This document shows positions 1 through 31,795 of a stretch of 42,470 nt of DNA, piece by piece; position 1 is the first letter of the stretch, and the number at the start of each line of letters is the position of its first letter. The translations under genes and the position numbers were made by a program. The stretch lies in IMG/VR virus record IMGVR_UViG_2690316243_000004. One strand, given 5' to 3'. The DNA is from a virus. Taxonomy: Duplodnaviria > Heunggongvirae > Uroviricota > Caudoviricetes. The notes below the pieces were generated by a model. It was not told the DNA's origin. It searched no databases and worked only from the letters and a program-made list of their open reading frames with translations.

Positions 1-918
1 TTACGAGAACTCGGCACAAGCGGGGAGAAAATACCGTTACTCAGTACAGCGAATACCTGGACTAATCGACAAACATTCAGCGGTGGCCTTTCTGGTGAAC
101 TATCCGGCAATGCTTCTACAGCTGCAAAATTAAAAACTGCCAGGAAAATAAGCAATGTGGCTTTTGATGGTTCCTCCGATATCACATTAAAAGCAAGTCA
201 TGTTGGTGCGTTTGCCTTAGGGAAAACAGGAAGCACCGTTGCGAATGATAAAGCAGTTGGATGGAACTGGAGTAGCGGAGCCTATAACGCAACTATTAGT
301 GGTGCATCAACGTTAATTATTCATTTTTATATGGGAGAAGGAAGTTGTCCTGCAGCTCAGTTTCGGATTAATTATAAAAATGGCGGTATTTTTTATCGTT
401 CAGCCCGTGATGGTTATGGTTTTGAAGCCGACTGGTCCGAATTTTACACCACCAGAAAACCTTCAGCAGGAGATGTTGGTGCACTGCCGTTATCTGGTGG
501 TCAACTGAATGGTGCACTGGGTATCGGAACATCCAGTGCTCTTGGCGGTAATTCGATTGTATTGGGTGATAATGACACGGGCTTTAAACAAAAAGGCGAT
601 GGTAATCTGGATGTTTATGCTAATAACGTCCATGTTATGCGCTTTGTCTCCGGAAGCATTCAAAGTAATAAAACCATAAATATTACGGGACGTGTTAATC
701 CCTCGGATTACGGTAACTTTGATTCCCGCTATGTGAGAGATGTCAGACTTGGCACACGAGTTGTTCAGACCATGAAGAAAGGCGTGATGTATGAAAAATC
801 AGGCCATGTAATCACGGGGCTTGGTATTATCGGTGAAGTCGATGGTGATGATCCGGCAGTATTCAGACCAATACAAAAGTTAATTAACGGAACATGGTAT
901 AACGTATCGCAGGTATAA
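1..918 (+). CDS. Tail fibre protein, C-terminal receptor-binding portion (5' end lies outside the window)
   Basis: Frame 1 is open from base 1 into the listed 157-918 ORF (which begins at GTG). The translation has tail-fibre-like glycine/serine-rich repeats and ends with [14 protein letters not shown], the C-terminal motif shared with the two other fibre cassettes in the window. Confidence 0.7.
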
Positions 919-920
919 TC

Positions 921-1454
921 ATGCAGCATTTAAAAAACATTGTCGCAGGTAATCCAAAAACCGTTGAACAATACCAGCTAACAAAGAATTTTGATGTTAT
1001 CTGGTTATGGTCCGAAGATGGAAAAAATTGGCATGAGGAATTAAAAAACTTTCAGGAGGATACAATAAAACTGGCTTACACAGTTGAGGGAATAATTATT
1101 GCTATAGACAAGGATGTATCAGCAATTAATCCAGAAGGTTTAAGTGTCGTTGAGTTGCCTGATATTACAGCAAATCGCCGGGCTGATATTTCGGGCAACT
1201 GGATGTTCAAAGATGGTGCGGTGATAAAGCGAACTTATACCGAGGAAGAGCAAAGGCAACAAGCGGAAAATGAAAAGCAGAGCCTGCTGCAGCTCGTCAG
1301 GGATAAAACCCAGCTGTGGGACTCTCAGCTACAGCTGGGCATCATTTCCGATGAGAATAAACAAAAATTAACCGAGTGGATGCTCTATGCGCAGAAGGTT
1401 GAATCCACAGACACCTCCAGCCTGCCAGTAACGTTTCCCGAACAACCAGAATGA
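921..1454 (+). CDS. Tail fibre assembly chaperone (Tfa / gpG-like)
   Basis: 177 aa, starts 3 bp after the fibre C-terminus. Its C-terminal half ([24 protein letters not shown]...) is repeated at 2492-2860 and 14730-15074, typical of mosaic tail fibre assembly proteins. Confidence 0.8.
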
Positions 1455-1460
1455 GAGAAG

Positions 1461-1481
1461 GCCCGCTATCGGGCCTTAATT
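1461..1481. terminator. Hairpin between convergent chaperone genes (possible bidirectional terminator); same element recurs at 2866-2886 and 15081-15101
   Basis: aaggcccg-ctat-cgggcctt stem-loop followed by a T-rich tract, placed between convergently transcribed genes. Confidence 0.4.
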
Positions 1482-1482
1482 T

Positions 1483-2046
1483 TTATTCAGGCTTTTGTGG
1501 CCATTCAGGATTTGCCGTATCCACACGGCTGACCAGAACACTGTAGCGTTCCCATGCTTCCAGTCGTGTGCGTTCCTCGTCTGTTGCCATATTCAGCCTG
1601 ACAGCGCGTTCCAGCGGCTGGATGACTGATTCAGCTTCGGAAAGCAATGCGGCCTTTTGTGATTCGGCCTGTTGTTGCAGTTCCTGTTCTGTATATTCCC
1701 TCTTTACTACTTTACCATCCAGAAACATCCATTTTCCGTTATTGTCTGCGTGACGATTTGCCGTAATATCAGGAACTTCAACTATGCTTAGCCCTTCAGG
1801 ATTAATAGTTGAAACGTCTTTACTGACAGCAACGATGATGTTGTTCTCATCGTAAGCAATTTTTATGGTGTCTGGCTGAAAATTCTTTTGTTCCTCATAC
1901 CAGTTTTTGCCATCTTCGCAAAAGAGCCATACCACGCCCGCTTTTTTAGTTAGCTGGTATTGTTCCGGTGTTTTCGGATTCCCGGCCTTAATATTTTTCA
2001 GGTGCATCATCTTAAACACTCCCCACGTTGTACCATATTCCCCCAA
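1483..2046 (-). CDS. Tail fibre assembly chaperone (Tfa/gpG-like), identical copy of 15103-15666
   Basis: 187 aa protein identical to that of 15103-15666; convergent with 921-1454. Confidence 0.8.
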
Positions 2047-2490
2047 TCAATTTCTGAATTGGCCTTCTGGCAACAGTGTCGACAATATCATCCGCATTGC
2101 TGTTAATTGCGGCTGTTAAAACATAACCTGACGCATCGCCAAAGCCGTAGTCGCGCCATACGTTTTTATATTCAATGCTGCCAAGACGAATATCCCGAAC
2201 GACATGATTATGCAGCCATGTGCTTAACCAGTTGTTTTCCCACACTGAACCATAAATATCGCCACTAGACGCAACTTGCGCACCACTTCCCAGCGCAAAT
2301 CCCCCATCTGTTTTAAAAATGAAATCACCACCACCATCTGAACCGTTATTAATATGAACACCATCACCACCGTTATCTTTCCACAAAAACATACGAATTC
2401 TTCCGTCTTCGTTGGCGAATGTAATGTGGTGGCGGTAATTACTTTTTAATCTAAAATTGCTGCCATTAGATTCAATATCTTTATAAAGAT
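2012..2490 (-). pseudogene. Silent or truncated copy of the 3' end of tail fibre gene H (C-terminal cassette)
   Basis: Translation matches the last ~150 aa of H ([16 protein letters not shown]...[18 protein letters not shown]). Homology stops abruptly at the n at 2491; the listed ORF 2012-2686 is a chimeric read-through. Confidence 0.6.
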
Positions 2491-2491
2491 N

Positions 2492-2860
2492 AATAATATT
2501 ATTGTCGCCATCACCAAAGATGCCTCCACGCTTAACCCTGAAGGTTATAGCGTCGTTGAGGTTCCTGATATTACAGCAAATCGCCGGGCTGATATTTCGG
2601 GCAACTGGATGTTCAAAGATGGTGCGGTGATAAAGCGAACTTATACCGAGGAAGAGCAAAGGCAACAAGCGGAAAATGAAAAGCAAAGCCTGCTACAGCT
2701 CGTCAGGGATAAAACCCAGCTATGGGACTCACAGCTACGGCTGGGCATTATTTCCGACGAGAATAAACAAAAATTAACCGAGTGGATGCTCTATGCGCAG
2801 AAGGTTGAATCCACAGACACCTCCAGCCTGCCAGTAACGTTTCCCGAACAACCAGAATGA
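2492..2860 (+). pseudogene. Tail fibre assembly chaperone, 5'-truncated C-terminal fragment
   Basis: In-frame translation from the junction reads ...[40 protein letters not shown]..., a third near-identical copy of the chaperone C-terminal half. Its first ~70 bp are an inverted repeat of part of 2889-3449. Confidence 0.55.
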
Positions 2861-2888
2861 GAGAAGGCCCGCTATCGGGCCTTAATTT

Positions 2889-3449
2889 TTACTCAGGCTT
2901 TTGTGGCCATTCTGGCTTTGCCGTATCCACACGGCTGACCAGAACACTGTAGCGTTCCCATGCTTCCAGTCGTGTGCGTTCCTCGTCTGTTGCCATATTC
3001 AGCCTGACAGCGCGTTCCAGCGGCTGGATGACTGATTCAGCTTCGGAAAGCAATGCGGCCTTTTGTGATTCGGCCTGTTGTTGCTGTTCGTCAGCCGTAT
3101 AAATCCGTTTAACCACAGCTCCGTCCTTAAACATCCACTTACCGGAATCATCAGCACGACGATTAGCTGTAATATCAGGAACCTCAACGACGCTATAACC
3201 TTCAGGGTTAAGCGTGGAGGCATCTTTGGTGATGGCGACAATAATATTATTTGCATCGTAAACAATCTTTATTGTGTCTGGCTGAAAGTTCTTCACTTCC
3301 TCATACCAGTTTTTTCCGTCCTCAGAGTAAAGCCAGATGACTCCGTGCTTCTTTGTTAACTCATACTGCTCCACTGTTTTAGCATTACCTGCTTTTATGT
3401 TCTTTAAGTGCATCATATTAAATACTCGCCACATTATACCAAGTGCCAT
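2889..3449 (-). CDS. Tail fibre assembly chaperone (Tfa/gpG-like), variant partner of the 3418-4428 cassette
   Basis: 186 aa; N-terminal half diverged from, C-terminal half nearly identical to, the 1483-2046 and 15103-15666 copies. Confidence 0.8.
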
Positions 3450-4428
3450 TTATATACTTTTGCACTGGCCTGTAATGAACGCCTGCAATATTATCGGCAG
3501 AGTTTTTTCCGGTATCCTGTACGTTAATCCCCGTCAGTACATAGCCTGACGGGCACTGAAAATTCCATGTTTGCCAGTTGTTCACTCCATAATATTGCTG
3601 TGAACCAAGTCGAACATCTTTCACATATCTGGAATCAAAATTGCCATAGTTGCCGGGAATAACTTGCGAGCCGCAAAGCCAGTTCCCGTTATTATCCATG
3701 TACGCCTGACCATCGGTGCCATTGGCTGTCCTTGAGTTATTAATCATGTAGATGCCAAATTGCTTATTTCCCAGACCGCCAATCATAAATTTGCGGTCGG
3801 CATGGTCCTGACGGAGCAAAGCCTGAGCACCATCAGTGGATACCGCATTACGTCCCAAAATAACATTCTGGTCACGCATATGAATCCACATGCCGGTACT
3901 ACTGTTAATTGCAAAACGGTTTGCAAATATATCCCCTGTAACATCAAGACCATGCCCCATGCTTATCCGGCCAGTTCTGAGATTAAGCGTAAAGGGGCGT
4001 AGTGGCCCTATATTACCATTTTCCCCTTCATTCTCTCGTGTAGGGATGATATGCAGGCATTCTTCAGAACGACGAAAAATGGCACCAAAAGATGAATTAA
4101 ATATCCTCAGTGCATTGACTGTCGATATTTTCACTTCACTGCTGAAAAGGGCTTCAACAAGAACAGACAAAGCATTCCATTTAAGATTCATCAGGTCTTT
4201 AGGCCGGGTGCCAATGATGCGGTGTCTCCATTTGAAATATTCATTGCCGTTGTTGCCTGTTTCAAACCACATGTAGGAATCGGTGTCTGCATCCGAATTA
4301 TTTTTAAACCCAATCTTTGCCCAGTCAGTATTTCGAATCCAGGCAAGGATTGAGTCGTTTTCAAAAGTAAGTCCACCGGACAACGTATCGCCATTTTTTT
4401 GCACGGCGTTACCAGCCTTGTTTACCGT
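3418..4428 (-). CDS. Alternative tail fibre C-terminal cassette (silent variable region)
   Basis: Begins directly at the crossover site with [20 protein letters not shown] (compare H: [20 protein letters not shown]) and ends [15 protein letters not shown]. An in-frame TAA at 4447-4449 inside the site closes the frame upstream, so it is not expressed as a fusion in this configuration. Confidence 0.7.
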
Positions 4429-4454
4429 TTCCTGTAAACCGAGGTTTTAGATAA
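4429..4454. promoter_or_regulatory. Recombination crossover site of the Gin/Cin/Pin/Hin (gix-like) type
   Basis: Minus strand reads TTATCTAAAACCTCGGTTTACAGGAA, one mismatch from the classical gix sequence as remembered. It sits at the fibre variable-region boundary about 55 bp upstream of the invertase 5' fragment. Confidence 0.6.
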
Positions 4455-4490
4455 TGGCCGTTTCCGGCCTGCATGGCATGATTTGCGCTT

Positions 4491-4715
4491 TTGGACGGGA
4501 GATTCAGCGTGCTGATTGGCTATGTAAGGGTATCAACAAATGACCAGAATACAGACCTGCAACGAAACGCTCTTGTTTGTGCAGGATATGAACAAATATT
4601 TGAAGATAAATTAAGCGGAACAAGGACAGGCCGACCTGGATTAAAACGTGCTTTAAAGCGCCTTCAAAAAGGTGACGCACTGGTTGTCTGAAAACTGGAC
4701 TGACTGGGTCACTGT
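4491..4715 (+). pseudogene. Serine invertase 5' fragment (truncated duplicate of 5687-6274)
   Basis: Encodes (M)LIGYVRVSTNDQNTDLQRNALVCAGYEQIFEDKLSGT... then a stop after ~66 codons. About 95% identical to 5649-5905, after which similarity is lost. Confidence 0.7.
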
Positions 4716-4889
4716 ATGCGGCATCTTGTCGTGCTGGTGGTGGAAGCCTAGAAAAAGTATCGGGTGTTGCTGAACCGTGTTGATACATCAACTGCACCTG
4801 ATATTGAGTGGCCTACGAACCCTGTCAGGGAGTAATCATTGGGATTATGCCGCAGCACGTCTTAAGCAAGAACGTGCTGCGGTTGGATG

Positions 4890-5474
4890 CTATTTTTTCC
4901 CTGAAGCGGAAAACATTACTACAGTACCTTGAACCCTGGTTTTAACATTCTCGAAATGCTCTGAGAGTATATGTGTTAAGCCTTCTTCGGAATCTTTTGT
5001 GTTTGAAAAGATGCCTTTCTGATTGTAAATGCGCATCAGTTTTTGACCGAAGCTATTGTGCACAACTCCATCGCCAAGAATTGTGGCTCCGTATAGAGTT
5101 CCATCGTCAGTTAAGGCCTGCGCCGCATTGCGTATTACACAGCTTTTTGTAGATATATTTCCAGGCAGGCAGTGAAGAAGGTAAAACATGGAAATGGAAT
5201 CAAATTGACCATGTAACGCCGCGGGATAAGGTTCAAAAACATCATGGCTAATTTTATGTTTAATTTTTGATTCCCCAGCCCTTGTAGATGCCGCGTTCAG
5301 GCTAGCTTCGTTCAAATCCATTAAAGATATCAGACTACTCTCAGGTACGTGAGTAAGGTAAAACCCAGTTCCAACACCAATATCCAGATGGTTGTTACCT
5401 AAATGTTCCAGAAAGTGTGGAAGAAGGTGTTCCTTTGTAGGACATCCCCATGCAAGCCGATTTGATACTCCCAA
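4890..5474 (-). CDS. Class I SAM-dependent methyltransferase, substrate unknown
   Basis: Motif I LDIGVGTG (DxGxGxG) near the N-terminus. The listed start is TTG; the frame stays open upstream to about 5556 with no in-frame ATG, so the true start is uncertain. Local sequence is AT-richer than the phage genes. Confidence 0.6.
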   Translation of the reverse strand: MGVSNRLAWGCPTKEHLLPHFLEHLGNNHLDIGVGTGFYLTHVPESSLISLMDLNEASLNAASTRAGESKIKHKISHDVFEPYPAALHGQFDSISMFYLLHCLPGNISTKSCVIRNAAQALTDDGTLYGATILGDGVVHNSFGQKLMRIYNQKGIFSNTKDSEEGLTHILSEHFENVKTRVQGTVVMFSASGKK

Positions 5475-5686
5475 AACCCACCAGTCATAAAGCTTTAGGG
5501 TAAGTGGTGTGTAAATTTTAGCCCCATCATCTGTGTTTTTTTCATTGATTTCACCATGTTATAGTTTTATTTGTGAATTAAATCAATTATGGCGATGAAT
5601 TACAAGGGGTTAAATGCTGCCGCAGCATAGCGATATTGAAATAGCCTNGCATGGCATGATTTGCGCTTTTGGACGGGAGATTCAGC

Positions 5687-6274
5687 GTGCTGATTGGCTA
5701 TGTAAGGGTATCAACAAATGACCAGAATACAGACCTGCAACGAAACGCTCTTGTTTGTGCAGGATGTGAACAAATATTTGAAGATAAATTAAGCGGGACA
5801 AAGACAGACCGACCGGGATTAAAACGCGCTTTAAAGCGCCTTCAAAAAGGTGACACGCTGGTTGTCTGGAAACTGGATCGCCTCGGGCGAAGCATGAAAC
5901 ATCTGATTTCTCTCGTCGGGGAACTACGGGAGCGAGGAATTAATTTTCGCAGTCTGACCGACAGCATAGATACATCTTCTCCAATGGGGCGTTTTTTCTT
6001 CCACGTGATGGGTGCCCTGGCTGAAATGGAACGTGAATTAATTGTTGAACGTACACTGGCCGGACTGGCGGCAGCACGCGCACGGGGGCGCACAGGCGGA
6101 CGTCGACCGAAGCTGACAAAAGAACAGCATGAGCAAATAGCAAGGCTGATCAAAAACGGGCACGACAGAAAACAACTGGCAATAATTTACGGCATTGGTA
6201 TATCGACGATTTATCGTTACCACCCCGCAGGAGAATCAATCGGAACAATAGAGAAGAGTCAGGAAACAAAATAA
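5687..6274 (+). CDS. pin: Serine recombinase, DNA invertase of the Pin/Gin/Cin/Hin family
   Basis: From the GTG start the protein reads MLIGYVRVSTNDQNTDLQRNAL... with the catalytic serine region and a C-terminal helix-turn-helix (GISTIYRY); closely resembles E. coli prophage Pin as recalled. Confidence 0.9.
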   Translation: MLIGYVRVSTNDQNTDLQRNALVCAGCEQIFEDKLSGTKTDRPGLKRALKRLQKGDTLVVWKLDRLGRSMKHLISLVGELRERGINFRSLTDSIDTSSPMGRFFFHVMGALAEMERELIVERTLAGLAAARARGRTGGRRPKLTKEQHEQIARLIKNGHDRKQLAIIYGIGISTIYRYHPAGESIGTIEKSQETK

Positions 6275-6309
6275 CCGCTAATCTGACCATTAGCGGTTTT
6301 TGTGTTAAA

Positions 6310-6804
6310 TCAGAACAACCCTTTAACTGAACTGGCCGCGCTGTTAAGGGATGATGTTACCTTATCTTTGAAGCCGGACAGCATATCGCTGAACGATGAG
6401 GATTGCAGGCGCTCCCGCAAATCCTCATCACAGCGTTCAAGAGTCAGTGAAAATTCTATCTTTTTCGCCTTACCGTAGCGATCAAACTCGGAGCGGGTCG
6501 TATTCGTTTCGGTCAGGACATACATGCCGTAAATCTGCCCGACGCCATCAATCAGAGGCCAGGGTCGTCCTGTATACGCCTGCGTGGTCAGCAGCGACAG
6601 CGACACTTCGCCACCTGTAATTTCAGGATAAAGCACACCAGAAAGAACGATGCGCTCATCACCTGCACCGATATACTGCCAGCTTGCCGAACGGTTAACG
6701 CGTTCATTTTTCACATGCCGCCAGCTTTTGTTTTGCTGTAACTGCTGATGCGGCAATGTACGCAGCTCAAAAACAAACATGCCGTAGATCATCATCATGG
6801 CCAT
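6310..6804 (-). CDS. Tail protein gpU-like
   Basis: 164 aa, immediately downstream of the tape measure gene in the FI-FII-E-T-U order; size matches P2 gpU. Confidence 0.7.
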   Translation of the reverse strand: MAMMMIYGMFVFELRTLPHQQLQQNKSWRHVKNERVNRSASWQYIGAGDERIVLSGVLYPEITGGEVSLSLLTTQAYTGRPWPLIDGVGQIYGMYVLTETNTTRSEFDRYGKAKKIEFSLTLERCDEDLRERLQSSSFSDMLSGFKDKVTSSLNSAASSVKGLF

Positions 6805-6810
6805 GACTCC

Positions 6811-9704
6811 TCAATCTTTATCGTAAAAACTGCCACGCCCGGCACGGGCGCGCCGTTCCATTTCTGCCCTGACCATTTCACCGACCAGTTTCGCCAGTTC
6901 GCGGGGATTCTGCGTAACAACGTTATGCAGATGAACATGAATTTCACCACCAAATCCGGAGGCAACAGGCTCCCGGTTACGGGAAGTTACAGGAACTGAT
7001 GCCACTGGAGAGCGTATGGCCTCCGCCACCGGGCGGGAGCTGGCCGCAACAACAGGGACCAGCGCCGGAGGCAGCGGAGCCGGGACCACGGGTGTGATAT
7101 TAATTGCGGGGGCAGGCTTACTGACCTGCGCAATCTTCCGCTCCTGCCACTCCCCACGAACAGCAAGTGCGCGGGGCAGGTTCTTAAAGACAATATCGCC
7201 GGGGCCAATGCGTTTTTTCGTCTCATCAACCAGCTTACCTGTGTTATCAGCAATTTTGCTGAGTCTGCGTAGCGTCCCGGTATTGCTGTCTGTGAGCGGT
7301 TTGTTGTCTTTGGGTTTATCACCTCCGGTGCCATTGCCATTTTCCACAGGCTTCGGCGGATTGATTTTCGCCAGGTCCCCCTGAAGCAAGGCAACCTTGT
7401 CCTGAAGAATGGCCGCACGCTGTGCGTCTTCGATTTTCTTGCGCGCCCTTTCCGCTTCATCCGGAAGGACGCCAAGTTTTTCAAGTATCCACGCCAGCGT
7501 ATCCAGTAGCATTTTTGCAGGTGTCAGAACAAGTTGTAACGCACCGCCAAGAACGTTACCGAATATCTCGCCAGCACTGGCACATTTATCCAGCGTTTCC
7601 TTGCTGGACTCCATCGGTGACAGCAGCGATTTAAACCAGTTAAAGACCTGAATAATCCCATCGCGCACGACATCAAAAACAGGGCCAAACCGTTCAAAGG
7701 TTTCGCGCAACGGGGTCAGCCTTTCCATAATCCCGCTGAACACCCCGGCAAAAAATGCCCTGATGGGATCCCAGTATTTCCAGATAAGAACGGCAGCTCC
7801 GGCAAGCGCAGCCACGATAAGACTAACCGGACTGAACAGCGCCCCGATAGCGCCACCAAGTAAAGAAACGGAACCCGTCACCATTCCCCATAATGCAGGC
7901 AGAACCCTGACAACATTCATTGATTCGGTCAGGAGAGAAAAACCGAGACGCAACGTAGCCAGCTTCCCGTGAAGCACCCCAATAACCAGAGACAACGAAC
8001 CAACCGTTGCTGTTGTCGCCAGCAGTGCGCCTCCCGCTATCAGTAACTGGCGCGTCAGTGCCGGGTGGGCCTGCGCCAGCGCCGTCACCTTTGAGACAAC
8101 CCGCGTGAGCCACTGCGTGACAGAACGCAGCGGACCGTCAACCAGATCACTGATGCGAATACGCAGACCTTCCCATGCACTGCCGAGTGATTTCAGGTTG
8201 CCATCAAGGTTATTGGCCATAACCTTTGCCGTGCGTTCTGCCTCACCGCGCGCGCCTTCAAGTTCTTTTCTCAGTTTGGCTAAGAAGCCGTCACCTGCCG
8301 CATCAACGAGGCCCATAAATGATGTGAAAGCCTCTTCTCCGGCAATGTCCTTAAAGAACGATACCCGGTCAACCTCCCCGTATTTGCGGGTGGCTTTATA
8401 GAGATCGGCCAGCACATTCTCCATCGGGCGCATTTTGCCTTTGGCGTCAGCAACTGACACCCCCAGCTCTTTCAGTGCTTCTGCCGCTGCCTTTGGCGGT
8501 GATGACAGATTGGCCAGGCTTTTACGCAACGCTGTACCTGCATCACTCCCCCTGATACCCATCTTCGCCAGCACGCCCGCCATCGCTGCGGCCTGCTCCA
8601 GCGATATTCCCAGCTTACCCGCCACCGGACCTGCATATTTCATGGTTTCGCCCAGTGCGCGAAGGTCAGTGTTGGTACGGGTAAACGCTGCGGTAAGTGT
8701 GTCACCGACCCGGTCCATCTGGTCAGCAGAGAGGCCGAACTGCGTCAGGATATTGGAACCAATATCCGCCGTCTCGCCGAGGTCCATACCGCCAGCCGTT
8801 GCCATGCTCAGCACGCCGGGAAGCGCAGCCTGAATGGCCTGCGGTGTGAAACCAGCCATTGCAAGAAATGCCTGTCCACTGGCGGCATCGCCTGCGGTGA
8901 ACTGCGTTTCAGAGCCAAGTTTTAACGCCTGCTCACGCAGCGCCTTAAACTGCGGGCTGTTTTTATCGATTCGCGTCAGTGCCTGAACACGGGACATCTC
9001 TTTCCCGAACCCGATAGCGGGCTGCAAAAAACGCCNNNNNNNNNNNNNNNNNNNNNNNNNNNNNNNNNNNNNNNNNNNNNNNNNNNNNNNNNNNNNNNNN
9101 NNNNNNNNNNNNNNNNNNNNNNNNNNNNNNNNNNNNNNNNNNNNNNNNNNNNNNNNNNNNNNNNNNNNNNNNNNNNNNNNNNNNNNNNNNNNNNNNNNNN
9201 NNNNNNNNNNNNNNNNNNNNNNNNNNNNNNNNNNNNNNNNNNNNNNNNNNNNNNNNNNNNNNNNNNNNNNNNNNNNNNNNNNNNNNNNNNNNNNNNNNNN
9301 NNNNNNNNNNNNNNNNNNNNNNNNNNNNNNNNNNNNNNNNNNNNNNNNNNNNNNNNNNNNNNNNNNNNNNNNNNNNNNNNNNNNNNNNNNNNNNNNNNNN
9401 NNNNNNNNNNNNNNNNNNNNNNNNNNNNNNNNNNNNNNNNNNNNNNNNNNNNNNNNNNNNNNNNNNNNNNNNNNNNNGGCGTCGTGCTTTCACGATGCCC
9501 GCATCCGCTTTACTGACAGCGTCACGGGCGCGCTCAAATGAACGCGCCTGACGCTCGAGATTTTTGATCGCCCCCTGCGTTCGCTGGATGGAGTCACCAA
9601 ACTGCCCCATCAGGCGGCGGGCGTTTTCGGCAGGGNNNNNNNNNNNNNNGCCGGGTCAGCCTGTCAACGGCGCTGAAAGCGACCCGGATATCAAGAGTCT
9701 TCAT
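6811..9704 (-). CDS. Tail tape measure protein (gpT-like), interrupted by assembly gaps
   Basis: Long alanine/glycine-rich, helix-rich protein. The listed 738 aa ORF continues through the N run to an ATG at 9704-9702 (MKTLDIRVAFSAVDRL...). Confidence 0.75.
9036..9477. other. Run of N (sequence gap) inside the tape measure gene; a second short N run is at 9636-9649
   Basis: Directly visible as n characters. Confidence 0.99.
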
Positions 9705-9909
9705 TGTCTGCATTCCCGCTGCGAAGTGCCGCCCGCTCACGCCAGCTAACCACTTCGCCGGGCGTCATCATGAAGATTTCGGCGGGCGACCAGTTAAAAA
9801 TGGCGGCAATATCCGCCACAAAGTCTTCTATGTGCTCAAAGCACACAACCGTGATCAGGCTTCCGTCGCCTGTTCGTTCTTCTCGCCAGAGTCCGCACCG
9901 CTCAAAAAA
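9691..9909 (-). CDS. E-prime extension, made as an E+E' fusion by -1 programmed frameshifting
   Basis: Minus strand reads gta aaT TTT TTG agc (heptamer at 9903-9909). The -1 frame then gives ERCGLWREERTGDG...NEDS, ending 14 bp inside the tape measure start. Confidence 0.6.
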   Translation of the reverse strand, partial: FFERCGLWREERTGDGSLITVVCFEHIEDFVADIAAIFNWSPAEIFMMTPGEVVSWRERAALRSGNADNEDS

Positions 9910-10220
9910 TTTACGGCAACCACACATAACTGAATAAAGTCACGGGATGCCATTTTTTTGATCGTCACTTCATCCAGTCGCGGTGATGTCACGCGTGACA
10001 GCAGCGTAAACATGGATTCCGCTTTCAAATTCAGCACATCAGACAGCGACAAATCTCGCAGAGATCCAGCCTGCTCAATAGCCCCGGTGATCTCCACATA
10101 CGTGATTTTTTCGCCGCCTCGCTCAATTGGTTGGGTAAGTTTTACGCCACGCTCACTGGTTTCTTTCACAGTGTCAGCAACGACCGTGTTTTCGGTATCG
10201 ATGTTTTTCGTCTCTTTCAT
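9855..10220 (-). CDS. Tail assembly chaperone gpE-like (zero-frame product)
   Basis: 121 aa ORF between the tail tube and tape measure genes; contains a T TTT TTG slippery heptamer near its 3' end. Confidence 0.7.
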   Translation of the reverse strand: MKETKNIDTENTVVADTVKETSERGVKLTQPIERGGEKITYVEITGAIEQAGSLRDLSLSDVLNLKAESMFTLLSRVTSPRLDEVTIKKMASRDFIQLCVVAVNFLSGADSGEKNEQATEA

Positions 10221-10274
10221 CAGGAAACTCCTTTCAGTCAGAGGCGACGCACTGCGCCGCCTGCATATTACTTA

Positions 10275-10787
10275 TCAGCCAAGCCCGAGCGCGGAACGGA
10301 TGCGATCGGGCACAATGTCCCTGCCGTCCTTCCGGTAAATGAAGTTCAGCAGGTCAATCTCCCACAACGGGCGATCGTTAACACTCAGCTTGTAGTAGGT
10401 GTTTTTAATGGCGTAAGTGTGTGATGTGGCTTCGCCCTGTTTGGCTTCCCCCATATCAATTTCCGTCACACGTCCGCGCATTTCGACTTCATACAGGTCG
10501 CTTTCAGCGTCGGTGTAGTATTCACCCGCAAAACGCAGCAGCGTACCGTCAATCGTGCCGCCATACTTAAGGAACAGCTCACGAACTGCGCCCCCCATGA
10601 CAAAGCTCGCATCAAGCGCGGAGTCATCCAGGCCGAGATCAATACTTACCGCTCCCATCATGCCACCACCCCGGTAGCTGTCGGTTTTGCGCGTCAGCTT
10701 AGGCAGAGTGACGGACGTCACCTTACCCACTTCGTTTTCACCATCCACAAACAGCGTAAAAAAGCGAAGATGTTTTGGTACAGCCAT
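10275..10787 (-). CDS. Tail tube protein (FII-like)
   Basis: 170 aa, immediately downstream of the sheath gene with overlapping stop/start; size and position match P2 FII. Confidence 0.8.
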   Translation of the reverse strand: MAVPKHLRFFTLFVDGENEVGKVTSVTLPKLTRKTDSYRGGGMMGAVSIDLGLDDSALDASFVMGGAVRELFLKYGGTIDGTLLRFAGEYYTDAESDLYEVEMRGRVTEIDMGEAKQGEATSHTYAIKNTYYKLSVNDRPLWEIDLLNFIYRKDGRDIVPDRIRSALGLG

Positions 10788-11971
10788 CAGGCACCTCCCA
10801 GCACCGCAAATGCGGGACCAAAGAATTCATCAGTAAACGACTGGTAAAGCTCCATGTCTTCCAGCGGGGGAACAGGCGTATATTTGTAGCGAATACGCAC
10901 GCGCCCCTGACGTAAATTCGTGGTGCCGTTATCCACCACGTCATACCAGCACGACGCCCCAATCAGTTTCCCGGCAGTAACCAGTGAATCCAGTTTTGCC
11001 CTGATGGCACCGATAACATCCTTCACGTTCGCAGGCGTCAGTGGACTGTCGATGGTTTCAAACTGCGCTTCCGCAATTGAATCAGCCAGCACCTGTGCGG
11101 TTCGGGTATACACCTCAAAGATGTAGGCGTTCGTTTCCGGTGTGCGGTTGCCCCAGAAGCGGAACCCGTTGCGACGAATAATGGTCGTGATTTCTTTGTT
11201 GTTGAGGCTGTTGGCATCACTGTCTTCGGCCTGCAACGACCAGAACACATGCCTGGACATCCCCAGCACATTTTTAACCGGAACGTTGGACAGCGATTTG
11301 TGCCAGCCCTGCTCATGGTCAATGTACGCACGAAGGCCGCACGCATAGGCAGGCGCGGGGAACGTTTCGTTTTTGCCACTTTTCGGGTTGTAGGCGATGA
11401 AGTCCGGCCATAAGAGCATCACCTCACGTTCGTTGAATTTCTGGCGGTAGGTAATTGCCTCAGCCATCGTGTTACAGTCATGACATGAGGCATACACAAA
11501 CGCGCGCAGTTTACCCGCAATCACGCACAGGGATTTTGTCACCGCCTCCGTGTCCAGCTCCGGCGCGGCCAGAATACGCGGACGGTATCCGATGCTTTCA
11601 TCCTGCTCTGCAACAAGCAGCGCATACATCCCCGTATAGCTGCCGTCAGATTCAGAACCACCGATAACCAGTTGATCCTGCGTTTTTCCGTCTTCTTCTT
11701 TGTGTTCAGCCACGCGAACGACGATCACCTTTGTGCTCACCTGGTCTGCGATGGCCTTAAGCGCACGATAAAGCGTCCCCGTTGTTCCGCATTTTCCCAG
11801 CACGTCATTGACGCGGGGCAGCAGTGTGGGCTTGTTCAGCGAGAACAGCTCCGCGTCCGCATCATCCGCCGTTGCCACGATACCGATAACGCTGGAATCA
11901 ACATCGTTAATCGCTGTTACCAGGTCGGTATTTTCCGTAACACGGGCACCATGAAAACGAGTTTCACTCAT
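10787..11971 (-). CDS. Contractile tail sheath protein (FI-like)
   Basis: 394 aa; size and position match P2 FI. Confidence 0.85.
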   Translation of the reverse strand: MSETRFHGARVTENTDLVTAINDVDSSVIGIVATADDADAELFSLNKPTLLPRVNDVLGKCGTTGTLYRALKAIADQVSTKVIVVRVAEHKEEDGKTQDQLVIGGSESDGSYTGMYALLVAEQDESIGYRPRILAAPELDTEAVTKSLCVIAGKLRAFVYASCHDCNTMAEAITYRQKFNEREVMLLWPDFIAYNPKSGKNETFPAPAYACGLRAYIDHEQGWHKSLSNVPVKNVLGMSRHVFWSLQAEDSDANSLNNKEITTIIRRNGFRFWGNRTPETNAYIFEVYTRTAQVLADSIAEAQFETIDSPLTPANVKDVIGAIRAKLDSLVTAGKLIGASCWYDVVDNGTTNLRQGRVRIRYKYTPVPPLEDMELYQSFTDEFFGPAFAVLGGA

Positions 11972-12128
11972 AGCTTCAACCCCTTGTATCCGTTAAATGA
12001 TTCGGCAACAATCATCACCCACCACGCGCGTAATCTCACCCCTGCGCCATTCTCCCGCCACGGCGACAACAAAAAGCAGTAACCCCCTCCGCACGCACAT
12101 GCGACCATGCCACACAGGGAGGGAGCAG

Positions 12129-13238
12129 ATGACCGACACCACCATGCAATTGCTCAGTCAGGGCACAGACCCCGTGAAAATGCCGGATTTTGATATTCTC
12201 GCGGAGGGTAAAACGCTGTCAGGCGTGGCAGAGCGCCTGATGAGCCTGTCACTGACCGACAACCGGGGATTTGAGGCGGACCAGCTCACCATCACGCTGG
12301 ATGATGCGGATGGTCAGTTGCAGCTACCGCCACGGGGCGCGCGCCTGACGGTTCTCATTGGCTGGAAGGGAGAACCGCTGACAGAAAAAGGCACTTACAT
12401 TGTTGATGAAATCGCTCACGAAGGACCGCCGGACAGGCTGACTGTTTCAGCCAGAAGCGCAGATTTTCGGGCTGAATTTAACGTTAAACGTGAGGTGTCC
12501 TGGCATGATGTGACCGTTGAGCGTGTGGTATCCGCCATCGCTCATCGGTATGGTCTGAAACCGCAAATCAGCGAAATGCTGATGGATATCGAAATCGACC
12601 ACGCCGACCAGACCGAAGAAAGCGACATGTCCTTCCTTACGCGCATGGCGGAAATGCTGGGCGCAATCACCACGGTAAAAAGCGGTAATCTGTTATTCAT
12701 CATGCCCGGTGGTGGCGTGAACGCACAGGGCCAGCCGTTGCCCTCGTTCGCCATCACACGCAGCAGCGGCGATCGCCATCAGTTCCGCATTGCTGACCGC
12801 GAAGCGTATACGGGGGTACGCGCTTACTGGCTTGATCTTAATTACGGGAAAAAGAAAAAAGTCAGCGTGAAACGCCGCAAACCGTCAAAACCAAAAAAGG
12901 AGAAAAGCAGCAGCCGGGAAGGCGACTATATGGAAGGTGCGGAAGGCAACGTGTTTGTGTTACGCAAAACTTATCAGAACGAGCAGGCAGCAAGACGTGC
13001 AGCGGCGGCAAAGTGGCAGCAGCTACAACGCGGAGCCGCATCATTCTCCATCACACTGGCGCATGGACGTGCAGAACTCTACCCCGAAATGCATGGCACG
13101 GTAACAGGATTTAAAAGCGAGATTGATAATCAGGACTGGATTATTGCAAAAGCCGAGCACACCATTGATAACAGCGGCTTTACCACGCAGCTTGAGCTTG
13201 AGGCAAAAATCCCGGAATGGATAGCAGAAACAGAGTGA
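12129..13238 (+). CDS. Tail protein D (late control gene D family)
   Basis: The listed ORF starts at 11997, but the ATG at 12129 follows a GGAGGG ribosome-binding site. It is divergent from FI, which is not the P2 order. Confidence 0.75.
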   Translation: MTDTTMQLLSQGTDPVKMPDFDILAEGKTLSGVAERLMSLSLTDNRGFEADQLTITLDDADGQLQLPPRGARLTVLIGWKGEPLTEKGTYIVDEIAHEGPPDRLTVSARSADFRAEFNVKREVSWHDVTVERVVSAIAHRYGLKPQISEMLMDIEIDHADQTEESDMSFLTRMAEMLGAITTVKSGNLLFIMPGGGVNAQGQPLPSFAITRSSGDRHQFRIADREAYTGVRAYWLDLNYGKKKKVSVKRRKPSKPKKEKSSSREGDYMEGAEGNVFVLRKTYQNEQAARRAAAAKWQQLQRGAASFSITLAHGRAELYPEMHGTVTGFKSEIDNQDWIIAKAEHTIDNSGFTTQLELEAKIPEWIAETE

Positions 13239-13478
13239 GCAACTTAAATGTATTAACTCAGAACGGATCAACACACTCACAACATAGAGTCAATATAGCT
13301 GCTCGCTTTGTTCCAGCAAGGATGCCTATTTCTAAGGAAAAACAGAGCAGAAACATATGGTGTTTTCCTACCTGACATCAGGGGTGGTAGACTGGCCCCC
13401 TGAATCTCCAGACAACCAGTATCACTTAAATAAGTGATAGTCTTAATACTAGTTTTTAGACTAGTCATTGGAGTACAG

Positions 13479-13844
13479 ATGATTGATGTCTTAGGGCCGG
13501 AGAAACGCAGACGGCGTACCACACAGGAAAAGATCGCAATTGTTCAGCAGAGCTTTGAACCGGGGATGACGGTCTCCCTCGTTGCCCGGCAACATGGTGT
13601 AGCAGCCAGCCAGTTATTTCTCTGGCGTAAGCAATACCAGGAAGGAAGTCTTACTGCTGTCGCCGCCGGAGAACAGGTTGTTCCTGCCTCTGAACTTGCT
13701 GCCGCCATGAAGCAGATTAAAGAACTCCAGCGCCTGCTCGGCAAGAAAACGATGGAAAATGAACTCCTCAAAGAAGCCGTTGAATATGGACGGGCAAAAA
13801 AGTGGATAGCGCACGCGCCCTTATTGCCCGGGGATGGGGAGTAA
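13479..13844 (+). CDS. insC: IS2 transposase OrfA (InsC)
   Basis: [56 protein letters not shown]... helix-turn-helix protein. Confidence 0.85.
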
Positions 13845-14707
13845 GCTTAGTCAGCCGTTGTCTCCGGGTGTCGCGTGCGCAGTTGCACGTCATTCTCAGA
13901 CGAACCGATGACTGGATGGATGGCCGCCGCAGTCGTCACACTGATGATACGGATGTGCTTCTCCGTATACACCATGTTATCGGAGAGCTGCCCACGTATG
14001 GTTATCGTCGGGTATGGGCGCTGCTTCGCAGACAGGCAGAACTTGATGGTATGCCTGCGATCAATGCCAAACGTGTTTACCGGATCATGCGCCAGAATGC
14101 GCTGTTGCTTGAGCGAAAACCTGCTGTACCGCCATCGAAACGGGCACATACAGGCAGAGTGGCCGTGAAAGAAAGCAATCAGCGATGGTGCTCTGACGGG
14201 TTCGAGTTCTGCTGTGATAACGGAGAGAGACTGCGTGTCACGTTCGCGCTGGACTGCTGTGATCGTGAGGCACTGCACTGGGCGGTGACTACCGGCGGCT
14301 TCAACAGTGAAACAGTACAGGACGTCATGCTGGGAGCGGTGGAACGCCGCTTCGGCAACGATCTTCCGTCGTCTCCAGTGGAGTGGCTGACGGATAATGG
14401 TTCATGCTACCGGGCTAATGAAACACGCCAGTTCGCCCGGATGTTGGGACTTGAACCGAAGAACACGGCGGTGCGGAGTCCGGAGAGTAACGGAATAGCA
14501 GAGAGCTTCGTGAAAACGATAAAGCGTGACTACATCAGTATCATGCCCAAACCAGACGGGTTAACGGCAGCAAAGAACCTTGCAGAGGCGTTCGAGCATT
14601 ATAACGAATGGCATCCGCATAGTGCGCTGGGTTATCGCTCGCCACGGGAATATCTGCGGCAGCGGGCTTGTAATGGGTTAAGTGATAACAGATGTCTGGA
14701 AATATAG
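13802..14707 (+). CDS. insD: IS2 transposase OrfB (InsD), DDE catalytic domain
   Basis: 301 aa ORF overlapping insC in the -1 frame, as in IS3-family OrfAB frameshift fusions. Confidence 0.85.
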
Positions 14708-14729
14708 GGGCAAATCCANAGCATCAAGC

Positions 14730-15074
14730 CAAGATAAACGCTATCACATTGTTGAAGGCGCAAGCGTCGTTGAGGTTCCTGATATTACAGCAAATCGCCG
14801 GGCTGATATTTCGGGCAACTGGATGTTCAAAGATGGTGCGGTGATAAAGCGAACTTATACCGAGGAAGAGCAAAGGCAACAAGCGGAAAATGAAAAGCAG
14901 AGCCTGCTGCAGCTCGTCAGGGATAAAACCCAGCTATGGGACTCACAGCTACGGCTGGGCATTATTTCCGACGAGAATAAACAAAAATTAACCGAGTGGA
15001 TGCTCTATGCGCAGAAGGTTGAATCCACAGACACCTCCAGCCTGCCAGTAACGTTTCCCGAACAACCAGAATGA
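14730..15074 (+). pseudogene. Tail fibre assembly chaperone, C-terminal fragment truncated by IS2
   Basis: Begins just past the IS2 right end and encodes only the conserved C-terminal half (...[24 protein letters not shown]...PEQPE). Confidence 0.6.
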
Positions 15075-15102
15075 GAGAAGGCCCGCTATCGGGCCTTAAT
15101 TT

Positions 15103-15666
15103 TTATTCAGGCTTTTGTGGCCATTCAGGATTTGCCGTATCCACACGGCTGACCAGAACACTGTAGCGTTCCCATGCTTCCAGTCGTGTGCGTTCCTCGT
15201 CTGTTGCCATATTCAGCCTGACAGCGCGTTCCAGCGGCTGGATGACTGATTCAGCTTCGGAAAGCAATGCGGCCTTTTGTGATTCGGCCTGTTGTTGCAG
15301 TTCCTGTTCTGTATATTCCCTCTTTACTACTTTACCATCCAGAAACATCCATTTTCCGTTATTGTCTGCGTGACGATTTGCCGTAATATCAGGAACTTCA
15401 ACTATGCTTAGCCCTTCAGGATTAATAGTTGAAACGTCTTTACTGACAGCAACGATGATGTTGTTCTCATCGTAAGCAATTTTTATGGTGTCTGGCTGAA
15501 AATTCTTTTGTTCCTCATACCAGTTTTTGCCATCTTCGCAAAAGAGCCATACCACGCCCGCTTTTTTAGTTAGCTGGTATTGTTCCGGTGTTTTCGGATT
15601 CCCGGCCTTAATATTTTTCAGGTGCATCATCTTAAACACTCCCCACGTTGTACCATATTCCCCCAA
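15103..15666 (-). CDS. Tail fibre assembly chaperone (gpG-like), cognate to H
   Basis: 187 aa, immediately downstream of H on the same strand; identical to 1483-2046. Confidence 0.85.
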
Positions 15667-17545
15667 TCAATTTCTGAATTGGCCTTCTGGCAACAGTGTC
15701 GACAATATCATCCGCATTGCTGTTAATTGCGGCTGTTAAAACATAACCTGACGCATCGCCAAAGCCGTAGTCGCGCCATACGTTTTTATATTCAATGCTG
15801 CCAAGACGAATATCCCGAACGACATGATTATGCAGCCATGTGCTTAACCAGTTGTTTTCCCACACTGAACCATAAATATCGCCACTAGACGCAACTTGCG
15901 CACCACTTCCCAGCGCAAATCCCCCATCTGTTTTAAAAATGAAATCACCACCACCATCTGAACCGTTATTAATATGAACACCATCACCACCGTTATCTTT
16001 CCACAAAAACATACGAATTCTTCCGTCTTCGTTGGCGAATGTAATGTGGTGGCGGTAATTACTTTTTAATCTAAAATTGCTGCCATTAGATTCAATATCT
16101 TTATAAAGATGTAATCCTAACTCATCAATATGTCCGATGCGCGAACCATTTGAATAGAAGCTAATAATACCATCTCCATCTTGCCTAAATCCGGTGTCGT
16201 TATCTCCCAGAACAATGGAGTTTTCACCCAGTGCGTTATCAGTAGCTCCAATAGCTAGACCTCCTTTAATTTTGGCCCCGTGGCTGACAGATATAGCACC
16301 TGTTCTCAGATTTATAGCGAATGGCCTTAATGGGCCGATATTACCGTTTTCGCCTTGTCCTTCAGCCGTCGGAATGAAATGAAGAAAATCTTCTGAACGA
16401 CGGAAAATTAGACCGAAGGTATCATTGAAAATTCGCAGCGCATTCACCGTGCCAATTTTCAGTTCTCCGGTCATTTTATCGCCGGAACGCTGAACGGCGT
16501 TACCAGCCTTGTTTACCGTTTCCTGTAAACCGAGGTATTCGATAACGGCAGCAACGGTCGATTTCGCAAGAATATCCCGCCCGACTTTTGTCAGGGTTGC
16601 CAGGCTGGCGACATCATTCCCCGTAAAATACGGAAACCTGTCTGCCGCAGTAGCAAGCCCCGCCAGCGCCGTCAGAGTGGCATCTTTCGGTTGCTTACCC
16701 GCAAGCGCGTTAGTCATGGTGGTCGCAAAATTCGGGTCGTTGCCCAGCGCCGCCGCCAGCTCGTTCAGTGTGTTCAGTGCATCAGGCGAAGAGTCTACAA
16801 GTGCGGCAATCGCAGCCATAACGAAAGCCGTGCTTGCGATTTGGGTATTATTCGTTCCCTGTCGCGCAGTTGGTGTTGTTGGCGTTCCGGTCAGTGCCGG
16901 GCTGTTTAATGGGGCTTTCTTGTTCGTTTCATCCATTACTGCCTTAACGGCTTTTGGTGTCGCTGCCAGCGTTTCAGACGTGCTGTTGGTGGCGTTGCTG
17001 AGCTGGACAAGGCCTTTTGCGGTCAGCGAGGCGTCCGGGTGACGTCGTGACTGTTCATGCTCTTTCAGTTTGTCATCCACGTAATTCACTGTGGCCATCA
17101 CCATGGTGTTATCCACGGTAAGCGCCACAGTGGCAGTGCTGGATACGGTCAGAATGGTGCGAAATGTTTGTGCACGTCCGGATCCTTCGGCAACGGTTGG
17201 CTTGTAACTTTCGGCAGTATTGCCTACCGCGATCAAATCGCCGTGCTCATCAAACACACCAATTTCCCGGATCCAGAATCCGCCCGTTTCAGGAGGAATA
17301 ACCAGCTCCGCAATAATGTGGTTCTGATGTGTTGCGTCCAGGGTGACGCGATTAACGGTATGTCGCCACACCTCATGCACAAGACGGGTCTGCTTACTGT
17401 CTGGCGTGGGTAAAGTACCGCCGCCGTCACCCACGGCCATATGTGTCAGGCGGACAGGTTTCCCATCTGGCGCGGTTGCCTGCGCTAATTTTTTTGCACC
17501 CGTATCGGTGATAATGGTTTTAAATTTTCGTGTTGTGGTACTCAT
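15632..17545 (-). CDS. Tail fibre protein (gpH-like), constant N-terminal part fused to a variable C-terminal part
   Basis: 637 aa; a gix-like site sits in the coding sequence at the constant/variable boundary ([21 protein letters not shown]); ends [18 protein letters not shown]. Confidence 0.85.
16520..16545. promoter_or_regulatory. gix-like invertase crossover site embedded in tail fibre gene H
   Basis: ttcctgtaaaccgaggtattcgataa on the plus strand. Together with about 30 bp upstream it matches 4401-4440 and is in the same (direct) orientation as the 4429-4454 site. Confidence 0.55.
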
Positions 17546-17547
17546 GC

Positions 17548-18111
17548 TTAATCGTCCGGATAAATGGTAATGACTTCACCGTCGTAAGTTGCTGCTGCCG
17601 CGAAAATATCTCCCTGAATCTCCTGAATGATATTCAGCCCTGTCATGTGGCGGCTGACCGGGCGGGCATCAGCAATCAACCGCTCCATTTCCAGATACAT
17701 TTCCTCCGTCACGCCACTGTCCAGCGTGCCAACATCAATCTTGAATGTTCCGGGTTCGCCGTTGAACTCCCACCACTCAGACACGCGAATGAGGTATCCC
17801 AGCGGCTCAATGGCCCGTCGCAGGGCGCTGATGGTTCCTTTGTGTCGGTGTATCAGCCATGCATCACGAATCACCTGTCGCTTTGTCTCTTCCGGCCAGT
17901 TGCGATCCCAGCGGTCAACGGAAAACGCCCAGGCGAGATAAGGCAGCAGATGCACCGGGCAGGTGTCCGGCGACCACAGCGTGTTGAGGTCTGCCGGAAT
18001 GTCTGTAATGCGTGTTCCGACGGCTTCGGCACAACGCATGAAATTGCTGGCTGATGGTGGTAACAGTGAATTACTCATTACGCCCACCTTCGCTGATGGT
18101 GAATGACTCAC
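17548..18111 (-). CDS. Baseplate protein gpI-like
   Basis: 187 aa, between J and H in P2 late-gene order. Confidence 0.7.
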   Translation of the reverse strand: MSHSPSAKVGVMSNSLLPPSASNFMRCAEAVGTRITDIPADLNTLWSPDTCPVHLLPYLAWAFSVDRWDRNWPEETKRQVIRDAWLIHRHKGTISALRRAIEPLGYLIRVSEWWEFNGEPGTFKIDVGTLDSGVTEEMYLEMERLIADARPVSRHMTGLNIIQEIQGDIFAAAATYDGEVITIYPDD

Positions 18112-18967: not shown

Positions 18968-18970
18968 GAT

Positions 18971-31649: not shown

Positions 31650-31679
31650 GTCGCTTTTCCTTATGTTGATTAATTAATC

Positions 31680-31795
31680 GTTTACGGGATTCTGAAATCC
31701 CGTTTTTGCCTGTTTTGTGCGCGCTTCATATATCGCTGCGCGTTTTTTGCTCATTTACGGGATTCGTGAGTCCCGTTTCTGTCTGTTTTTTGTTT
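31680..31795. repeat. Two copies of a ~20 bp imperfect palindrome upstream of the ParM-like gene (possible parC-like site or hairpins)
   Basis: acgggattctgaaatcccgt at about 31686-31705 and acgggattcgtgagtcccgt at about 31757-31776, each followed by a T-rich tract; the second lies inside the last codons of gene A. Confidence 0.35.

Follow-up and report, generated by a model that had tools for sequence, protein, structure and literature searches.

The subject of this report is a 42,470-bp stretch of DNA (the window) that makes up the entire record CXCY01000026.1, a draft scaffold from the Shigella sonnei assembly GCA_001258795.1, and in particular a 1.35-kb direct repeat of tail fiber and chaperone genes that it appears to carry. 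We find that the repeated unit (fiber tip Hv_A with its chaperone G_A, here called cassette A) probably exists only once, in a decayed lambdoid prophage remnant, that the scaffold presents this one locus twice, and that the 13.6-kb spacing between the two copies is not physical. The underlying biology is that of the classical, already textbook, invertible tail fiber switch of the phage Mu Gin type, which here occurs in two coresident prophages.

The repeat and the gaps that bound it

When the window was compared with itself by BLAST, positions 1134 to 2490 and 14754 to 16110 matched on the same strand across 1357 bp (99.19% identity, 11 mismatches, 0 gaps), a match far beyond chance. This bears out the first-pass annotation of the sequence, which had reported a near-identical, same-orientation repeat at about 1145 to 2490 and 14765 to 16110. 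All 11 mismatches lie inside the first 219 bp (1139 to 1352, corresponding to 14759 to 14972), and the remaining 1138 bp (1353 to 2490 versus 14973 to 16110) are 100% identical and run to the end of a contig. The content described for the repeat also agrees with the open reading frames and Pfam assignments: it holds the last 159 codons of a fiber gene, a 175-amino-acid (aa) Caudo_TAP chaperone, a terminator hairpin, and the 3′ half of a convergent chaperone gene. A third copy, 87 to 88% identical, is found at 2532 to 3441. The fiber tips and chaperones concerned, some of lambdoid type and others of the type found in the P2-family phage P88, are as follows.

1 to 918, plus strand: variable C-terminal part of a side tail fiber (cassette B; Pfam gp37_C), open at the scaffold start
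921 to 1454, plus strand: chaperone G_B, 177 aa, Tfa/gpG type, partner in cassette B (Caudo_TAP, E = 5e-34)
1455 to 1482, 2861 to 2888, and 15075 to 15102: bidirectional terminator hairpin GGCCCGCTATCGGGCC between convergent chaperone genes, GC-rich, flanked by A/T runs and followed by a T run
1483 to 2010, minus strand: chaperone G_A, copy 1, 175 aa (Caudo_TAP), identical to 15103 to 15630
2012 to 2490, minus strand: last 159 codons of fiber tip Hv_A, identical to 15632 to 16110, cut by the gap at 2491
2492 to 2860, plus strand: G_y, the 3′ fragment of a chaperone gene, mosaic for G_B and G_D alleles and adjoining a contig end at its first base
2889 to 4404, minus strand: cassette C, consisting of chaperone G_C (2889 to 3416) and fiber tip Hv_C (3418 to 4404, 328 aa)
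14758 to 15074, plus strand: G_x, the 3′ fragment of a chaperone gene, likewise mosaic for G_B and G_D alleles; copy 2 of the repeat begins at 14754
15103 to 15630, minus strand: chaperone G_A, copy 2 (Caudo_TAP)
15632 to 17545, minus strand: H fiber gene, 637 aa (Pfam Phage_tail_fib and Phage_fiber_2), its P88-type constant part continuing into the lambdoid-type tip Hv_A

Repeat copy 1 begins within G_B, at 1134, and the hairpin is identical at all three of its positions. G_x differs from 2549 to 2866 by 2 mismatches. The additional chaperone fragment that had been noted at 2492 to 2860 is present and begins right after the N at 2491. The three fiber tips do end in the motif RP(I/V)QK(L/Y)I(N/G)G(T/I)WYNV, as had been claimed; the accompanying statement that they share only this motif is slightly too strong, as a second motif, (R/K)D(V/I)RLG, is also common to them.

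What the first-pass annotation overlooked were the Ns, an IS2 element (13388 to 14718), an invertase gene (5687 to 6274), and the crossover sites on which that invertase would act. Single Ns stand at 2491, 5648, and 14719, and longer runs at 9036 to 9477 (442 Ns) and 9636 to 9649 (14 Ns). Because these Ns lie inside a complete database record, the record is a scaffold of six contigs:

1 to 2490: contig C1
2492 to 5647: contig C2
5649 to 9035: contig C3
9478 to 9635: contig C4
9650 to 14718: contig C5
14720 to 42470: contig C6

A genuine direct repeat should lie in uninterrupted sequence, and this one does not: the interval is broken at each of the positions just given, and copy 1 ends at a gap. 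Copy 1 stops at the last base of C1, so that its right boundary, with an N at 2491, is set by the end of a contig rather than by anything biological; copy 2 begins 34 nucleotides (nt) into C6, the contig that follows the N at 14719. C2 opens (2492) with the third chaperone fragment, the final base of C5 is the final base of IS2 (14718), and the scaffold as a whole opens 9 nt inside a crossover site. The 5′ stump of a lambdoid pin gene (4467 to 4699) and the 5′ end of the intact invertase gene (5644 to 5877) form a direct repeat of 234 bp (95.7% identity), and C3 starts exactly where these two sequences cease to be identical in the upstream direction. Each noncanonical junction coincides with a single N (the end of copy 1 at 2490, the start of the invertase contig at 5649, and the end of IS2 at 14718). 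The two longer N runs break gene T, which encodes the tape measure. A related prophage has 372 bp at the corresponding place, and the runs are therefore estimated scaffold gaps rather than masked sequence.

Two prophages in closed genomes

Closed S. sonnei chromosomes, reached through look-ups of exact proteins and including that of strain 53G (HE616528), divide the pieces of the window between two prophages. One is a decayed lambdoid remnant near trpA, which reads side fiber constant part, crossover site, Hv_A, G_A, convergent G_B and Hv_B, crossover site, pin stump, and methyltransferase gene. C1 (1 to 2490) is 99.96% identical to this remnant, and 4434 to 5653 corresponds to the pin stump and methyltransferase end of the same locus (99.5% identity; 99.2 to 99.5% against the individual loci L003, L023, and L051, and 99% against the lambdoid phages 2G7b and ev243). 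The left 5.6 kb of the scaffold accordingly includes a pin stump and methyltransferase gene typical of a lambdoid prophage end. The other element is a P2-family prophage of the P88 (Xuanwuvirus) type, integrated beside btuC, to which 14720 to 38321 belongs. Its canonical order, found in P88_4B11, in Escherichia coli prophages, and in closed S. sonnei genomes, is I, H and G, a convergent second chaperone and tip, the invertase gene, U-T-E-FII-FI on the opposite strand, D, ogr, and hok, followed by ihfA. In the closed genomes, 2549 to 4699 and 5644 to 13668 of the window align in order, all on one strand, with the P88-like prophage between btuC and ihfA, and the sequence from 16505 onward matches its other strand. 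At 99.6 to 99.96% identity, the closed genomes assign 1 to 2490 and 4434 to 5647 to the lambdoid remnant and 2549 to 4454 and 5649 to 14718 to the P88-like prophage. The features on which this comparison draws are as follows.

4467 to 5647: lambdoid prophage end module, with the pin 5′ stump (4467 to 4699), a tfa fragment, and a class I SAM methyltransferase gene (4890 to 5549, minus strand; Pfam methyltransferase)
6310 to 13238: P88-like tail genes U, T (broken by Ns), E, FII, and FI, minus strand, and D (12129 to 13238), plus strand (Pfam)
13388 to 14718, plus strand: IS2, 1331 bp, 99.6% identical to IS2, encoding InsC/InsD (HTH_Tnp_1 and rve domains)
14720 to 14757, plus strand: piece of the interior of ycjY, 38 nt, a 100% match inside an intact ycjY in 60 closed E. 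coli genomes

Relative to the part of the prophage that runs from H through I and J to int (C6), the block from the invertase gene to D (C3 to C5) is inverted and lies on the wrong side, and ogr and hok are absent from the scaffold. Of the three anomalies of arrangement (the misplaced block, the lost ogr and hok, and the lambdoid left 5.6 kb), each hangs on a single N. The closed S. sonnei genomes are canonical at both loci and do not repeat the arrangement of the window; the lambdoid and P88-like prophages lie approximately 0.5 Mb apart in CP032523 and CP026802. Neither the arrangement nor its junctions were found among 5426 complete E. coli genomes queried with 1 to 20000, 14720 to 17600, and 13090 to 13690. 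The first-pass annotation had proposed that recombination between the copies could delete or duplicate the 13.6 kb between them. This proposal is not supported: the spacing depends on three single-N joins, and the closed genomes split the pieces between two prophages. With the interval a probable product of scaffolding, the predicted deletion or duplication would have no physical basis.

Individual proteins tell the same story. Among the matches listed, cassette A occurs once per closed genome and always in the lambdoid element; the exact G_A protein is found in closed genomes in lambdoid context only (10/10), the exact G_B protein in lambdoid remnants beside the pin stump and methyltransferase gene (10/10), and the exact 328-aa Hv_C, closed chromosomes included, in the canonical P88-like context of I, H, G, G′, Hv′, invertase gene, and U (10/10). 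Where the window has the fragment G_y, closed genomes have a full 177-aa gene. A look-up of the 83-aa chaperone fragment returned the CXCY01000026.1 record as its sole match, and the exact 637-aa H protein is known from only four draft assemblies, the window included.

The IS2 element offers a further point of reference. Strain 53G carries the same IS2 at the same site, where it is a simple insertion bounded by the target duplication GGTGG, and the genes beyond it are a PIN-domain gene, ogr, hok, and ihfA. The window has an N on the right flank of IS2 and then 38 nt of ycjY, with no target duplication on that side. The ycjY piece is fused to the chaperone fragment G_x through 10 nt of microhomology, GAAGGCGCAA, with no N at the junction; it may stem from chimeric extension or from the flank of a further copy of IS2. 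We also considered that IS2 had truncated the chaperone gene at 14719 and rejected this, as the 38 nt after the N come from ycjY and not from a chaperone gene. An IS2-mediated inversion of the invertase-to-D block was likewise rejected, given that the window has one IS2, that this IS2 lacks a duplication on its right side, and that relatives with the same IS2 are canonical. The insertion site itself, between gene D and the PIN-domain gene as in 53G, is a marker of the lineage from which the source species can be told.

Three sister drafts (L007 to L009; CXDL01000021, FTUZ01000029, and CXBQ01000042) hold the reverse complement of 1 to 2490, with the C1 alleles, contiguous and N-free with H, I, and J. 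Because 1 to 2490 is joined to H, I, and J without an N in these drafts, the two “copies” of the window are there a single sequence. The sister scaffolds order the neighboring pieces unlike the window and unlike each other. Each of them also holds a second block of the constant part, V-W-J-I-H (1.5 to >3.4 kb), which matches the first exactly as far as the crossover site and then continues into another tip (Hv_C, Hv_D, or a tip truncated by an insertion sequence); this second block could be an assembler duplication or part of a second P88-like element.

An invertible switch at each locus

The fiber cassettes are served by a Gin-type site-specific recombination system, the components of which are as follows.

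Bases 1 to 9: inner part of a crossover site, TTACGAGAA, its register taken from the closed-genome locus L045, 7002 to 7027
4429 to 4454, plus strand: 26-bp Gin-type crossover site TTCCTGTAAACCGAGGTTTTAGATAA, beside the invertase-gene side
5687 to 6274, plus strand: intact serine DNA invertase of the Gin family, 195 aa (Pfam Resolvase, E = 1.5e-50, and HTH_7)
16520 to 16545, plus strand: 26-bp crossover site TTCCTGTAAACCGAGGTATTCGATAA, at the constant/variable boundary of H

The invertase shares 154 of 182 residues (85%) with Mu Gin (PDB 3UJ3/4M6F; E = 1e-100), and the phage Mu counterpart of the crossover-site region carries the annotation “G-segment boundary.” The 5′ part of the invertase gene, where a Fis-dependent enhancer would be expected, is 93 to 95% identical in DNA to the 5′ region of gin in Mu and D108. 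At ≤8 mismatches, the window contains only two crossover sites, and closed relatives have two per locus. A switch calls for an inverted pair. The window has both sites on the plus strand at a distance of 12.1 kb, which reflects the scaffold and not the element; in closed relatives, the sites are inverted and approximately 3 kb apart (L017, 7951 on the minus strand and 11026 on the plus strand; L045 and L051 likewise). A Mu- or Min-like multicassette shufflon within one prophage was rejected, as there are only two crossover sites and closed genomes place cassettes A and B in one prophage and C and D in another.

Both segments are found in both orientations among the closed S. sonnei relatives (the observation concerns these relatives and not the window strain itself). 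For the lambdoid A/B segment, the outer half-sites are exactly swapped between L045 and L051 (4086 to 4111 and 7002 to 7027), a locus that corresponds to 1 to 2490 of the window; for the P88-like C/D segment, H encodes 678 aa in 53G and 656 aa in others. Inversion of this type switches the fiber tip and chaperone that are fused to the constant part of the fiber gene and so changes host range. The first-pass annotation was broadly right to see alternative tip and chaperone cassettes as raw material for host-range switching, and Gin-type inversion, attested by the two orientations and the swapped half-sites, is the mechanism that it had not identified. Gin, Cin, Pin, and Hin have long been known to be interchangeable, which fits the flipping of the lambdoid segment. 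Since that segment flips even though its local pin gene is a 60-aa stump, it is presumably inverted in trans, by the Gin-like invertase that is intact in the P88-like prophage approximately 0.5 Mb away.

Fine structure of the chimeric joints

Allele-by-allele comparison locates the points at which the contigs change from one locus to the other. From 14973 to 16637, C6 matches the closed lambdoid locus without a difference, and from 16638 it is P88-type; position 16550, just outside the crossover site, still carries the lambdoid allele. C2 is P88-like through 4587, including three P88 alleles past the crossover site, and lambdoid from 4588. The switches fall in stretches of 87 nt (16551 to 16637) and 101 nt (4487 to 4587) that are identical between the loci, and because they lie outside the 26-bp sites, they are not Gin crossovers. 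A Gin-mediated inversion of approximately 0.5 Mb between the two prophages, which would yield both junctions, was rejected for the window on the position of these same two stretches.

From 2551 and 14765 on, the chaperone fragments at 2545 to 2863 and 14759 to 15077 contain only G_B or G_D alleles, in alternating blocks and with no private alleles; private bases occur only at the 5′ edges (2536, 2539, 2547, and 2548 in G_y, and within the ycjY-derived start in the C6 fragment). Alternating blocks of this kind, read from the sequence, are the pattern expected of a collapsed-paralogue consensus of two real paralogues. A third real chaperone paralogue behind G_x and G_y was considered and is disfavored on the same allele pattern.

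Competing explanations

How might such a scaffold have arisen? We suggest that a short-read assembly stitched together contigs of two coresident prophages with homologous, invertible fiber cassettes. The assembler would have broken or misthreaded contigs at the sequences that the loci share, namely, the crossover sites (identical flanks of 87 to 126 nt), the last 133 nt of the chaperone genes, which are likewise identical, the invertase 5′ end, and IS2, and the scaffolder would then have linked the pieces by single Ns. One copy of cassette A would thereby have remained in its true lambdoid context (1 to 2490), cut by a gap, and the other would have been spliced onto the P88-type H (14973 to 16637). 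One published large-scale assembly pipeline built on Velvet, SSPACE, and GapFiller warns that these greedy steps can create false joins. The record was presumably made by that pipeline, and the single Ns presumably mark unresolved joins. The first-pass annotation had itself named duplication of the block by the assembler as the finding that would undo its reading, and to judge from the sequence this is most likely what has happened.

Several observations weigh against this account. Some of the allele switches in the mosaics are merely 26 to 27 nt apart, a spacing of which simple k-mer path switching is incapable, so that bubble popping or consensus polishing has to be assumed. The ycjY/chaperone junction lies inside a contig and is left unaccounted for. 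C6 runs N-free from gene I through the constant part of H into Hv_A, and the same H fusion gene is present in four independent drafts, which could mean a real, lineage-specific recombinant H. The switch point in the sister drafts (16512 to 16549) includes the crossover site and is compatible with genuine site-specific exchange. The history of the assembly and the true copy number are matters that we infer, whereas the gaps, the identities with closed genomes, the allele mosaics, and the merged copy of the sister drafts were observed.

The alternative that fares best, though we consider it unlikely, is that there are two genuine copies of cassette A, in two prophages approximately 0.5 Mb apart, and that the P88-like H gained its copy by homologous recombination or gene conversion in the flanking sequences; even so, the adjacency across 13.6 kb would be false. 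No N interrupts the fusion of the H constant part to the crossover site and Hv_A, either in the window or in the three sister drafts, and none interrupts the reciprocal-looking joint between Hv_C and the pin stump in C2; both switch points fall in identical stretches of 87 to 101 nt that RecA could use, and the sister drafts hold two V-W-J-I-H constant-part blocks. Set against this, cassette A stands in a P88-like context in none of the closed genomes among the matches listed, the switch points differ between the window and its sisters, the sisters retain the parental junctions as well, and the adjoining chaperone fragments are consensus-like mosaics. The four drafts that encode the fusion protein also have CX- and FT-series European Nucleotide Archive (ENA) names, which suggest a common submitter.

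It follows the same line of thought, and strikes us as improbable, that a sublineage of S. sonnei has really exchanged or copied fiber segments between its prophages, with H reading into the lambdoid A tip, the lambdoid pin stump abutting the P88 C tip, and one Gin-like invertase serving both loci in trans. Were this true, it would be a swap of host-range cassettes between coresident prophages caught directly.

Alternatively, the culture may have been a mixture of inversion isomers, an intact invertase continuing to flip the segments (possibly those of both prophages) and the assembler writing out the alternative junctions as extra copies. The invertase is indeed intact and 85% identical to Gin, both orientations of both segments occur in closed genomes with exact half-site swaps, even beside the 60-aa pin stump, and in the sister drafts the constant part of H is linked not only to Hv_A but to Hv_C or Hv_D as well. 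However, inversion within a locus cannot bring the lambdoid cassette A onto the constant part of the P88 H, and the alleles of the window switch outside the crossover sites, so that these junctions are not Gin products. We regard this explanation as very unlikely.

That the scaffold is right as written, IS2-mediated and illegitimate rearrangements having moved and inverted the invertase-to-D block, deleted ogr, and left a true 1.35-kb repeat 13.6 kb apart, is hardly credible: by definition the scaffolder had read pairs for each join, and S. sonnei genomes are IS-rich and rearranged (IS copies are seen in the closed-genome contexts), but there are three separate noncanonical joins, all on single Ns, the only IS2 in the window lacks a right-side duplication and is followed by the 38-nt ycjY piece, closed relatives with the same IS2 are canonical, and the sister scaffolds contradict the order.

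The reading in which one lambdoid cassette A has been written twice is the most likely, and the value of the result is cautionary. A real repeat would have predicted frequent loss or duplication of the block encoding the tail tube, sheath, and tape measure of the prophage, together with an unusual expansion of fiber cassettes. Instead, the combination of invertible paralogous fiber cassettes, IS elements, and greedy scaffolding can produce convincing false repeats in draft genomes, of which single Ns are the tell-tale sign.

Other features of the P88-like prophage

The P88-like tail genes of the window are collinear with, and 99.6 to 99.97% identical to, those of S. sonnei 53G and other closed genomes. 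In P88-like phages, as a comparison of 6310 to 13238 with L001 and L002 shows, U-T-E-FII-FI naturally run opposite to the baseplate and fiber genes and to D, and the invertase gene lies between the fiber cassettes and U; this gene order differs from that of P2. Between a parM-like gene and a gene for a 940-aa replication protein are two 42-nt direct repeats (31678 to 31719 and 31751 to 31792; 81% identical and 73 nt apart), each with a small hairpin, which could be terminators or a partition site.

Relation to known systems

The closest counterpart of the switch described here is the G segment of phage Mu with its invertase Gin (also found in D108 and SfMu). Besides the 85% identity of the invertase, the crossover site and invertase 5′ region are 93 to 95% identical in DNA to those of Mu and D108, and the two systems share convergent tip and chaperone pairs, a site at the boundary between the constant and variable parts of the fiber gene, and a second site beside the invertase gene. 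Unlike Mu, however, the hosts of the switch are a P2-family (P88-like) prophage and a lambdoid remnant rather than a transposable phage, and the cassettes differ from S/U and S′/U′ of Mu. The prophage itself resembles Escherichia phage P88 and Xuanwuvirus P88_4B11 (Peduoviridae) in gene order, with the invertase gene between the fiber cassettes and the opposed U-T-E-FII-FI, followed by D. DNA identity over the tail genes is 94 to 95%, and related E. coli prophages use the same btuC/ihfA integration site. It differs from P88 in that the S. sonnei version has IS2 and a PIN-domain gene after D (as in 53G) and in that its fiber region is scrambled as scaffolded.

The lambdoid locus has its own parallels in the P segment and Pin of e14, the C segment and Cin of P1, and the stf/tfa genes of lambdoid phages, with which it has in common a lambdoid side fiber whose tip is invertible, chaperones in pairs, and a pin-type gene alongside; here, however, pin is a decayed 60-aa stump followed by a methyltransferase gene. 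Several alternative fiber tips of the same family are also a feature of the shufflon-like Min system of p15B. Min has six crossover sites in one region, whereas there are two per locus here, and this is therefore not a multiple inversion system of the Min type. In the N-terminal tail-collar domain of H and the Caudo_TAP chaperone downstream of it, the P88-like genes recall H and G of P2, although P2 itself has no invertible segment. Horizontal exchange of such fiber cassettes among P2, Mu, P1, and lambda has long been established, reportedly through the work of Haggard-Ljungquist and colleagues in 1992.

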